Assembly: GCA_039621445.1 (NCBI GenBank) | Contig: CP154954.1 | Location: 26,424,954 to 26,488,953, forward strand | From: Euglena gracilis | Lineage: Eukaryota | DNA length: 64,000 bases | Direction: 5' to 3' | Part shown: in pieces, positions 31,501 through 34,500 of the stretch | How the letters are laid out: each line of letters begins with the position of its first letter | How positions within the stretch are numbered: position 1 is the stretch's first letter | Program-made: the position numbers and the translations under genes | Notes under the pieces: model-generated | What the model was told of the DNA's origin: nothing | What the model saw: the letters and a program-made list of their open reading frames with translations, nothing else | The model's database searches: none

Positions 31501-34500
31501 TTTGGACGGCGGCTGCCATCCAAATTTCGGATCACCGTGATCAAAAGGCATGGGATCAGATTTTCATTTAGTGCGCCGCGGAAAAGTTTTTTTCTGCACC
31601 ACGTACGCCGCGGCACCGGAAATTTTGTGACCGCGTGTGCCGTGGAAGATTGCTTTCTGTACGCCGCGTGCACCGCGGCAGCGCCGCGGCATAGCGGTCC
31701 TCGTTATCCCCTGTCCGTGCCGCGACAAAAAAGCATGTGCCGCGGGAACGTCATTGGTGCGCCGCGGGTGCATTGTTGGTGCGCCGCGGCAACGTTTCAG
31801 TTGCGCCGCGGTGTGCCGCGGCAAAAATTCGATTGTGTGCCGCGTGCGCCATGGGATAATTTTTTTTTGCGCCGCGGCAAACTTCGTTGCGGCGAATTAA
31901 ATGAAAGTCTGCATGGGATCTTCATTGTCCAAAGAGCAAATGCCAATAGCCAGTCGTCCAACGTGTCAAAGTTGCCCCACGCAGTTCACAAACCTTTTGA
32001 AAATCCCTCGCAGCTAACAGTGCAACCTGTTTGCTTTTTTTTCGCTTGAACAATACTAGGGCAACTAGTGACAAACTTGTCCCCAAAGAATGCTATGAGT
32101 GCTACTGGACCTTCTCAAGGGGCGGCGGTAGCCTCTGAACCAGCCAGAATTTGATCGCGTTGGTGCAAATGGCAGAGAGCTGTCCGGGGTACATTTAGAA
32201 AAGCCTGCAGCCAAAAAAAATCGACAATCCCGTGTGTCCTGTACACCGGCTTGGGCATAAGTCAAGAGCCCCAAATGCACAGTTTCAAAAACTGTGTCCC
32301 AGACACCAGCTCCGGCGTGAGTCCAAAGCCGGCTCAGGCTGACGCCTGAGCCGCTGTTCTAGGCTTCAGACTCACGCCCGAGCCGGTGTTCTAGGCTTCG
32401 AACTCACGCCCGAGCAGGTGTCCAGGACACAGTTTACAATACAGATGATATCACTGCTCTCCCCCTGTTTGCAGAGCTTGATGCGGATCGCTTGCATTTG
32501 GATGGTTTACCCAATGCTGCTATGTATGAGCGGTCATATATGCACACAGATTGTCTGTGCATGGTGCTGGTGACACCAAAGACAGATTTCATTGTCACTC
32601 TTTCTGTTGACGGGCATTTGAAGTTCTGGAAGAAACTTCCTGTTGATCGGGCTTCCTTTGAATCAATCCCTTTTGGGGGATGGAGATCCATTCACCCAAA
32701 GTCAAAATGGCCTCCGGAAAGAAGCCTGCCGTTGACATCATTTTTGTGAAGCATTTCCGCCCCCATTTAGGTTTGTGCTGCAACCTCTTGTTTAAAAAAA
32801 TATTTCCCTTCTTTTTTTTTTTGGCCAGGCATGGTGTCTGGGATGGCCATGTCGAGGTGGGATGGACAGCTCGTATGCACAGCTTCTGAAGATCAATCTG
32901 TGAAAGTTTTTGATGTCGTCAACTTTGGTGTGTGTATTGATCCGGCCCATCATTGCCCCGCATTCATATCCGTATTCCACATAAAATTTGAAGGGATTGC
33001 TGCATAACCCCACCGCTGGGTGAAAGTGAATGTGAGGACTCCCATTGTGCTTTTGCTTTTTGGGGGGTGCTTTGGCTCTGGGTGAATTTGTTGGCCAAAA
33101 AAATATCAAGGAATGGCATCAAGCTAATGAAAAGTTTAGTCACAGGGGAAAATCAGGTCCAGTGTGGAGTTTTCCAGGTGAAATTGCAAAACTGCGTCTC
33201 TCCCAGCAGGCAACCCCCACTCGAGGTGGGGTCAGTGGATTTTGAGGGGAAAAAGTGGGTGGATGATCTTTCCACCTGGCTGTAAAAAAACGAAAAGGTG
33301 GGTGGATGCCAAAACCCATCCACCCACCAATCCCCCCCTGGTAACCATGGGGTCACTAAGTGAATCTATGGTCTCTAAAGCCGGCTGGACACTTACCTCT
33401 GTGGTGGGCATTGCAAGGATTGTAATGTTTGTGTGGAATGGCATTAAGGTTTGATCCCCACACAGAGAATCCCCTCCCTCCCGCTTAAGTGCACAGCGTG
33501 CGCATTTTTGAAACATTGCTTCGGCCCTCTTGAAGTCGGTTCAGTATAACTGGCTTTTCAGAGGTGCGTTTTTCGACGTCATTTTCAGAGGCTCAAGGGT
33601 GTGGCACATTTTATTTCGGCACTGAGCACCCTTTGCGCATTGTGCCCTTACCACATCCCCCCCCTCTAAATTGCACCCCCCCAGGCTGCACTTTTTTGAT
33701 CCTCAAACGCCATGCATCAGACCAAGCTGATTTTTTTTTACCACAGCAAGATGAGAGGGTTTTGCGTTTTTTTTGCGTGTGACAAATGTGCCTTCTGCAA
33801 GAATGCAGCCAATGTAAGGGTTCCTTCGTCTTTTGTTGCCTTGCATGTGGTGCACGGGTCTCTCCCTTCATTGACCCCTCATTGGACCCCCCCTAGATTG
33901 CACCCCCCCCTGGGTTGCATTTTTTGGCTGGACCTCCTCCGTGGTGGGTGTAATCGAGAGGAGGGGGATGGTAAATGGGGGGAATTTCCTGGTCCCCCGA
34001 TTTCTTTGCCTTTGGGATCCAAGTTTGGGGGATCCAAGCATTCCACCCAGCAGGTTTTGTTCATTTTTTTTGCATTCCCATAACCCAGTAACCCCCCAAT
34101 CCAGTATCTCCTGAACTTCATACAAGCCTCTTGCCCCAAAAGAAGTTGCTGAAGGCCGCTGAGATTTCTCTGCACTGGACAAGAGTTGGTGGTCTTCAGC
34201 AACCCAGTTGCCATTCACTTTTTATCAGGGAGAAATGCACCAACCCCTTTGGTTGCACCCCCACTTTTCTGTCCAACAATCCCCGAAATCCTGAAAGACG
34301 CAAAGAACAATCTGAAGTGATGTGTTTCTCAGGAGTTGGATTTTCATCGTAATTTTTGTGTTCAGAAGTGCGCATGCTGCTATGTCTCTTTATTCTATTC
34401 TTTTTTTATTCCTACTTTATTTTTATTATTATTTTATTTATTTTATTCTTATTTTATTATTCTATATTCTTATTTATGCATGTTTCTTTATTCTGAATCA

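Follow-up and report, generated by a model that had tools for sequence, protein, structure and literature searches.

A plus-strand gene of Euglena gracilis resembling PPWD1/cyp15 is interrupted by an 89-nucleotide (nt) intron that is certainly a genuine euglenid nonconventional intron. It occupies positions 32645–32733 of a 64,000-nt stretch of contig CP154954.1 (GenBank assembly GCA_039621445.1, positions 26,424,954 to 26,488,953 of the forward strand), referred to below as the window, with coordinates counted from its first letter. We consider it probable, with some reserve, that the intron descends from a hAT-type transposon insertion whose target duplication supplied the 3 + 5 nt spacer. 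Nonconventional introns make up the majority of introns in one Euglena genome, and their origin has been in question since a source akin to MITEs (miniature inverted-repeat transposable elements) was suggested in 2013. A first-pass annotation, made from the sequence alone, had described the intron as a hAT MITE plus one copy of its 8-bp target-site duplication (TSD). The coordinates and letters that it gave for flanks and core were exact at every position, and its claim of origin stood in part: hAT-like ends, 8-nt flanks and 3/5 spacing were present, whereas internal similarity and multiple copies were not found.

RNA junction and splicing register of the 89-nt intron

Sequencing runs were compared over 28400–36090, comprising contig sets X15 and X18, the raw-read RNA run X21 and the DNA run X1. 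X15 and X18 belong to a group of six contig sets presumed to be RNA (type not on record), which contain 0.47 of the sampled words. Record 9 of X15 and record 12 of X18 each join 32641 to 32731, skipping 89 nt with zero mismatches, whereas a DNA contig (X1 record 5) is continuous over 31858–33866 and keeps them. The intron is therefore removed from RNA, and the predicted junction held when checked in these contigs. Record 9 (1688 nt) runs in order through 32475–32641, 32731–32768, 32827–32926, 34521–34609 and 35938–35993 with no mismatches. Record 12 (1687 nt) is arranged likewise; the 38-nt piece for the mini-exon is unlisted, and the record coordinates leave exactly that room. The upstream exon (32475–32644, plus strand), delimited by RNA contig pieces covering 32475–32641, tblastn with the homologous protein P0001 and a junction search, ends ...KFWKKLPV. 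Downstream lies a mini-exon at 32734–32770 (plus strand; piece 32731–32768 of X15 record 9, and junction search), followed by a 58-nt GT-AG intron. P0001 and a second homologue, P0002, read KKLP[V/I]DIIFVKHFR across the site without a gap, and retention of the 89 nt introduces a frameshift and a stop codon. It is very hard to credit that the 89 nt were instead lost at the DNA level, by transposon excision, or through an assembly artefact. All sampled words of the stretch are present in 14 DNA runs, a DNA contig crosses the 89 nt at the depth of its surroundings, and they are absent only from runs guessed or recorded as RNA.

The skip at 32642–32730 can slide over a common GTTGA up to 32647–32735, so that possible intron starts span 32642–32647. 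The six RNA-compatible registers start with GT, TT, TG, GA, AT or TC and end with CC, CG, GT, TT, TG or GA, and GT/GC-AG borders occur in none of the six. Knock-in genetics has yielded the code 5'-N3CDG...CH'GN5-6|R for euglenid nonconventional introns (Nomura et al. 2025, PMC12501133). According to passages of that paper, the 5' spacer has to measure 3 nt, the 3' spacer measures 5 nt (6 nt being tolerated), pairing directly inside the CDG and CH'G motifs is needed for splicing, and a CGG-CTG variant was assayed and spliced. Read as GAT-CGG...CTG-CCGTT|G on the plus strand, 32645–32733 agrees with this code at N3-CDG, at CH'G-N5-6 and at the purine of the next exon. The proposed spacers, 3 nt ahead of CGG and 5 nt behind CTG, are thus compatible with the RNA junction, and the 3 + 5 rule itself has been shown experimentally in passages of the same paper. 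RNAfold pairs CGGGCUUC with GAAGCCUG in an 8-bp terminal stem, in both the minimum free energy and centroid structures. Euglenid nonconventional introns are removed independently of the spliceosome and leave a circular intron product, as a review states in part. The anatomy of 32645–32733 differs in nothing from that of known euglenid nonconventional introns; what it adds is a match between its termini and a hAT family of this locus.

The same registers bear on hypothesis 1 of Milanowski et al. 2013, outlined in passages of PMC3935182, by which a former GT-AG intron drifts to the nonconventional class via an intermediate form. One of the six compatible registers does start with GT. However, AG ends none of them, and drift would leave both the inverted termini common with a hAT family and the 8-mer repeat unexplained, making this history improbable here.

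Intron ends, flanking 8-mers and hAT-type elements

Between the flanks lies an 81-nt core (32648–32728, plus strand) that begins CGGGCTTCCTTT and ends AAAGAAGCCTG, with ends resembling terminal inverted repeats (TIRs) on end comparison and folding. On the plus strand, the 5' flanking 8-mer CTGTTGAT (32640–32647) contains the 5' cut and the 3' flanking 8-mer CCGTTGAC (32729–32736) contains the 3' cut. These two TSD-like copies are identical at 6 of 8 positions; the 5' copy has T as its second base and A as its seventh. The 6/8 direct repeat described in the first-pass annotation was therefore recovered, and it is best at zero shift (6 identities; no other shift between -4 and +4 exceeds 5). Two window elements, TE1 and TE2, have termini to which the core ends correspond at 11 of 11 positions at the 3' end and 10 of 12 at the 5' end, the figures against TE1 bearing out the likeness to two window elements that had been claimed.

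TE1 (39158–40829, plus strand) is a non-autonomous hAT element nested in a GT-AG intron of the PPWD1-like gene. It begins CAGGCTTCTTTTT and ends AAAAAGAAGCCTG, with perfect termini (CAGGCTTCTTTT / AAAAGAAGCCTG, 12/12), subterminal arrays of 10-bp repeats, and flanks GACCCAAC / ACCCCAAC identical at 6/8. Inside it, at 40225–40425 (plus strand), lies a relic of the C-terminal dimerisation domain of a hAT transposase (Pfam PF05699, E 2.5e-5, 24.4 bits against a cutoff of 21.4). The relic is 77% identical to protein P0025, which itself matches PF05699 at 6.6e-10. A HMMER search with P0025 gave 1070 matches at E of at most 1e-3, and in a Pfam scan of 9 proteins six carried PF05699 (four of them with a BED finger as well) and three were without any match. 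When 151 hAT relatives were compared with the window by tblastn, all 69 high-scoring segment pairs (HSPs) fell within 39158–40829. The relic, above its cutoff, and the placement of 69/69 HSPs uphold the hAT nature and transposase relics that had been assigned to this element.

TE2 (1456–2048, plus strand) has the same termini without a coding relic, and its flanking duplication GTCCCGAC / GTCCCGAT is identical at 7/8. It begins GAGGCTTCTTTTT and ends AAAAAGAAGCCTG; the TIR previously proposed for it was correct as to its ends except that the first base is G, not C. A copy of the TE2 interior, 90.9% identical over 317 nt, lies at 22245–22560, with CAGGCTTC termini absent nearby, so the TE2 interior is itself a repeat. 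The consensus of hAT termini carries G at position 5, whereas the terminus here carries C.

Two further elements were included in the flank comparison. A MITE unrelated to TE1 and TE2 occupies 31557–31911 (plus strand) within a GT-AG intron. It has ends of the CAG...CTG type, CAGATTTTCATT / AATGAAAGTCTG (11/12), and its 8-bp duplication, CATGGGAT, is perfect. It is repetitive, with a DNA word depth of about 47,000–70,000 (bins 31484–31997) against about 200 in unique bins. Its ends are alike over about 25 nt, and its sequence would satisfy the nonconventional code (GAT-CAG...CTG-CATGG|G). A candidate 3.3-kb element at 52562–55876 has termini CAGGGCAGAACG / CGTTCTGCGCTG (11/12) and flanks GGTATGGG / GGTATAGT (6/8); tblastn of the hAT relatives found no hAT relic in it. 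Another candidate, at 29921–31140, with ends at 7/9 and 8/9, was not counted, its flanks being without a repeat. The reference elements are hAT-type, with 8-bp flanking duplications in register.

Zero shift was the best or tied-best alignment of the flanks in all six elements tested, with 6, 5, 6, 7, 8 and 6 of 8 positions identical for 32648–32728, 35995–36996, 39158–40829, 1456–2048, 31557–31911 and 52562–55876, respectively. Random 8-mer pairs from the window reached at least 6/8 in 0.88% of trials and at least 5/8 in 3.8%. In the same six elements, position 6 of the 8-mer is a purine in 6/6 cases and position 7 is A in 5/6. It is this position 6 that ends up first in the exon, and the published code demands a purine there. 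The hAT superfamily makes 8-bp duplications with the target preference nTnnnnAn, as passages of PMC10368747 describe, and the 8-mers of the 32648–32728 intron and of TE2 fit this pattern.

The terminus is also more frequent in the window than chance would give, the 13-mer occurring 11 times with at most 2 mismatches against 4.05 ± 2.02 expected (0/100 shuffles reach 11). CAGG/CCTG is the general consensus of E. gracilis nonconventional introns (PMC11170887, in the passages on this point); for this reason only the 9 nt beyond CAGG/CCTG were scored in a second terminus test, at C[AG]GG sites on both strands of the window. Of 1209 sites, nine agreed with the TIR in at least 7 of these 9 bases. 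Three of the nine are element ends and three are other sites; the rest comprise the two ends of the 32645–32733 intron and the 5' end of a second such intron in the gene. Unrelated sites thus reached this level in 3 of about 1203 cases, a background of about 0.25%.

The second intron (35992–37001, plus strand, 1010 nt) was located by junction search and by loose ends at 35993, and reads AAT-CAGGCTTCTCTTT...GAAAGGAGGCTTG-GCCTG|A. Loose ends at this position reading CTCCCCTACAGG... came from one contig each of X15 and X18 and from 16 reads of X21; the support covers the 5' side, the runs having been compared only to 36090. Its 5' end CAGGCTTCTCTTT matches the element terminus at 12/13 positions and its 3' end GAAAGGAGGCTTG at 9/13, all four differences at the latter being transitions. 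The flanks GCTGGAAT / GCCTGAAC are identical at 5/8. Both settled nonconventional introns of the gene (2/2) therefore carry an element-like terminus. Taken together, the four intron ends show 10 mismatches to the element terminus, of which 9 are transitions (P about 4e-4 if one third is expected); this suggests divergence from a common sequence, not chance likeness.

Origin of the intron

The mechanism that these comparisons point to would begin with a short non-autonomous hAT-type element inserting into an exon. The core would retain the inverted termini of that element (CAG/CGG...CTG), and the two flanking 8-mers would be its decayed 8-bp target-site duplication. In the pre-mRNA the ends CGGGCUUC and GAAGCCUG would pair, and the nonconventional splicing machinery would cut 3 nt 5' of CGG and 5 nt 3' of CUG and join the exons, restoring the frame ...KKLPV|DIIF.... 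Since 3 + 5 = 8, splicing would remove the element together with exactly one copy of the duplication, and the insertion would leave no scar in the mRNA.

Several observations weigh against descent from a hAT-type insertion. The likeness to hAT elements is limited to the terminal 11–13 nt, and with CAGG/CCTG being a general consensus only about 7–9 nt per end are informative; the two intron ends are, moreover, not independent of each other. Internal similarity of the intron to TE1 or TE2 was not found by blastn-short in the window, which gave only 11–12-nt matches. (A 12-nt match of the intron to a 77-bp satellite, E 0.22, was taken as chance.) DNA word depth over the intron is about 204, equal to its unique neighbours, against 10^4–10^5 over true repeats. 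This level implies that there are no near-identical copies and that the intron is not demonstrably a repeated MITE, although word depth is a rough proxy that diverged copies would escape. The flank repeat is 6/8 here (background 0.9%); that of the second intron, at 5/8 (3.8%), does no better at zero shift than at shift +1. With TTG in place of CTG at -8..-6, the second intron also departs from the strict code. The whole-fold energy of the 89-nt intron is ordinary (z = -1.30; 22/200 shuffles fold equally well). The comparison was made post hoc and comprises two introns from a single gene. No autonomous element with termini of the TE1 family was found by window tblastn, in metagenome contigs or in a search for longer proteins. 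The autonomous transposase that the first-pass annotation had proposed to look for thus did not turn up: tblastn of the 151 hAT relatives found relics in TE1 only, within the window; P0025 against metagenome contigs gave 91 pattern matches, none confirmed; and the search for longer proteins returned none at E of at most 0.01.

These points leave room for an ordinary nonconventional intron of unrelated origin, in which the hAT likeness would be the CAGG/CCTG consensus plus a pyrimidine-rich stem, arrived at by convergence or chance, and the flank repeat would be a product of chance or a by-product of double-strand-break repair (Milanowski et al. 2016). The generality of CAGG/CCTG (PMC11170887, in part), an intron that lacks internal similarity and is apparently single-copy, and the three unrelated C[AG]GG sites likewise at 7/9 all sit well with such an origin. 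So do passages reporting short direct repeats at the junctions of 84.4% of Euglena agilis introns (PMC12501133) and the break-repair idea itself, which is already in print (PMC4770533, in the passages concerned). We nevertheless judge this combined account rather unlikely. Both settled nonconventional introns share the extended terminus, with 7–8/9 past the motif where the background is about 0.25%, nine of the ten mismatches are transitions, and the flank repeats lie in the exact 8-nt register of bona fide hAT-like elements in the window. Break repair, in addition, gives no reason to expect inverted termini or a constant 8 nt.

Descent from a hAT-type insertion would also bear on a published case. 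Passages of Milanowski et al. 2016 (PMC4770533) describe a newly gained nonconventional intron in gapC of one E. agilis strain, with eight-nucleotide direct repeats at its junctions that were ascribed to break repair. Eight nucleotides are exactly what a hAT insertion predicts, and the hAT account, if true, would explain the junction repeat of the sole published newly gained nonconventional intron.

A MITE-like origin of nonconventional introns had been presented in the first-pass annotation as an earlier proposal, and it has indeed been in print since 2013 (PMC3935182), recurring in passages of PMC11282704, PMC12501133 and PMC12621601. A 2024 review (PMC11282704) terms CAG/CTG a 'TIR' and the junction repeats 'TSD-like', with neither 'hAT' nor an 8-bp statement in its relevant passages, and the 2025 paper (PMC12501133) still terms the origin unclear in the part that treats it. 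The inverted repeats at the ends, the TSD-like direct repeats and insertion as an intron source are common to that hypothesis and to ours. However, the passages of the MITE-origin papers give no superfamily, reference element or TSD length, whereas here there are a relic-bearing hAT element, 8-bp duplications and the sum 3 + 5 = 8. A hAT link of nonconventional introns or of Euglena, or the 8-bp sum, was not found in the literature searched, with subscription journals and supplements outside its scope. The MITE origin, the TSD-like repeats and the 3/5 spacing are thus already in print, as the passages cited attest. What is added here is the naming of the hAT superfamily, a relic-bearing reference element with termini seen again in two nonconventional introns of one gene, and the reading of 3 + 5 as the 8-bp duplication.

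Like non-autonomous hAT elements and MITEs, the intron is short and non-coding, with CAG...CTG-type termini and an imperfect (6/8) 8-nt flank repeat with T2/A7. Unlike hAT MITEs, it lacks copies that would form a family, and its subterminal sequence does not resemble the reference elements. A further parallel is offered by the introners of Micromonas, Aureococcus, dinoflagellates and other organisms, in which, as passages of PMC11282704 set out, element and TSD together supply all that is needed for exact removal and exonic insertion is tolerated. Introners, however, are removed by the spliceosome and occur in many near-identical copies, whereas 32645–32733 follows the non-GT-AG euglenid code and is apparently single-copy. 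Introner-type GT-AG/spliceosomal borders are absent from it in all compatible registers.

Extending the argument to most euglenid nonconventional introns is more tentative, and we regard it as doubtful but worth stating. They would be descendants of hAT insertions, and the 3 + 5 would be measured from the stem because the sum cancels an 8-bp duplication. This would render exonic hAT insertions neutral and let them build up, to 72% of introns in the case of E. agilis. Naming a superfamily and a reference element, together with the 3 + 5 arithmetic, turns a vague MITE idea into a sharp prediction that can be tested genome-wide with existing assemblies and intron sets. Reporter-type splicing assays also exist for natural and synthetic nonconventional introns, though for no transposon end pair in the passages of PMC12501133 that describe them. 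If the prediction is true, the host splicing system can neutralise a whole class of DNA transposons.

The host gene and other features of the window

The window has the character of nuclear DNA of a euglenid. The host gene was identified as PPWD1/cyp15-like (WD40 plus cyclophilin) by way of a 74-residue exon translation that led to full-length homologues. P0001 (86% identity) and P0002 (84%) both carry Pfam WD40 and PF00160 domains. Using tblastn with P0001, exons were placed from 28.5 kb to 47.9 kb, and a protein-guided junction search assigned the introns as eight GT-AG, two nonconventional and one of unsettled class. The exon or exons for residues about 277–301 and the whole cyclophilin domain were not found within the 64-kb window (gaps at 41141–44252 and beyond 47949); these exons may be tiny or lie past the window's end. 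The RNA contigs (X15 and X18) begin at 28497 after a non-genomic T-rich leader (...TTTTTTTTC), and this point may be the acceptor for a trans-spliced leader of the gene. Its introns hold long microsatellites: (TCA)x94 at 36093–36372, (TATG)x75 at 37211–37511 and (TTG)x36 at 47042–47149.

Two other features lie upstream of the gene. An open frame of 575 residues at 16109–17833 (plus strand) matches reverse transcriptase weakly (PF00078 at 22 bits, under the cutoff of 29.6) and is probably a decayed retroelement. The region 3300–11600 contains an element some 8.2 kb long, bounded by long inverted termini of the G-run type (GGGGGGGGGTAGTGGGGGTCGACCATGGTC...). Its 52-bp repeat arrays, inverted relative to each other, lie at 3474–3632 and 11217–11466 and enclose 98 copies of a 77-bp satellite (3644–11207).

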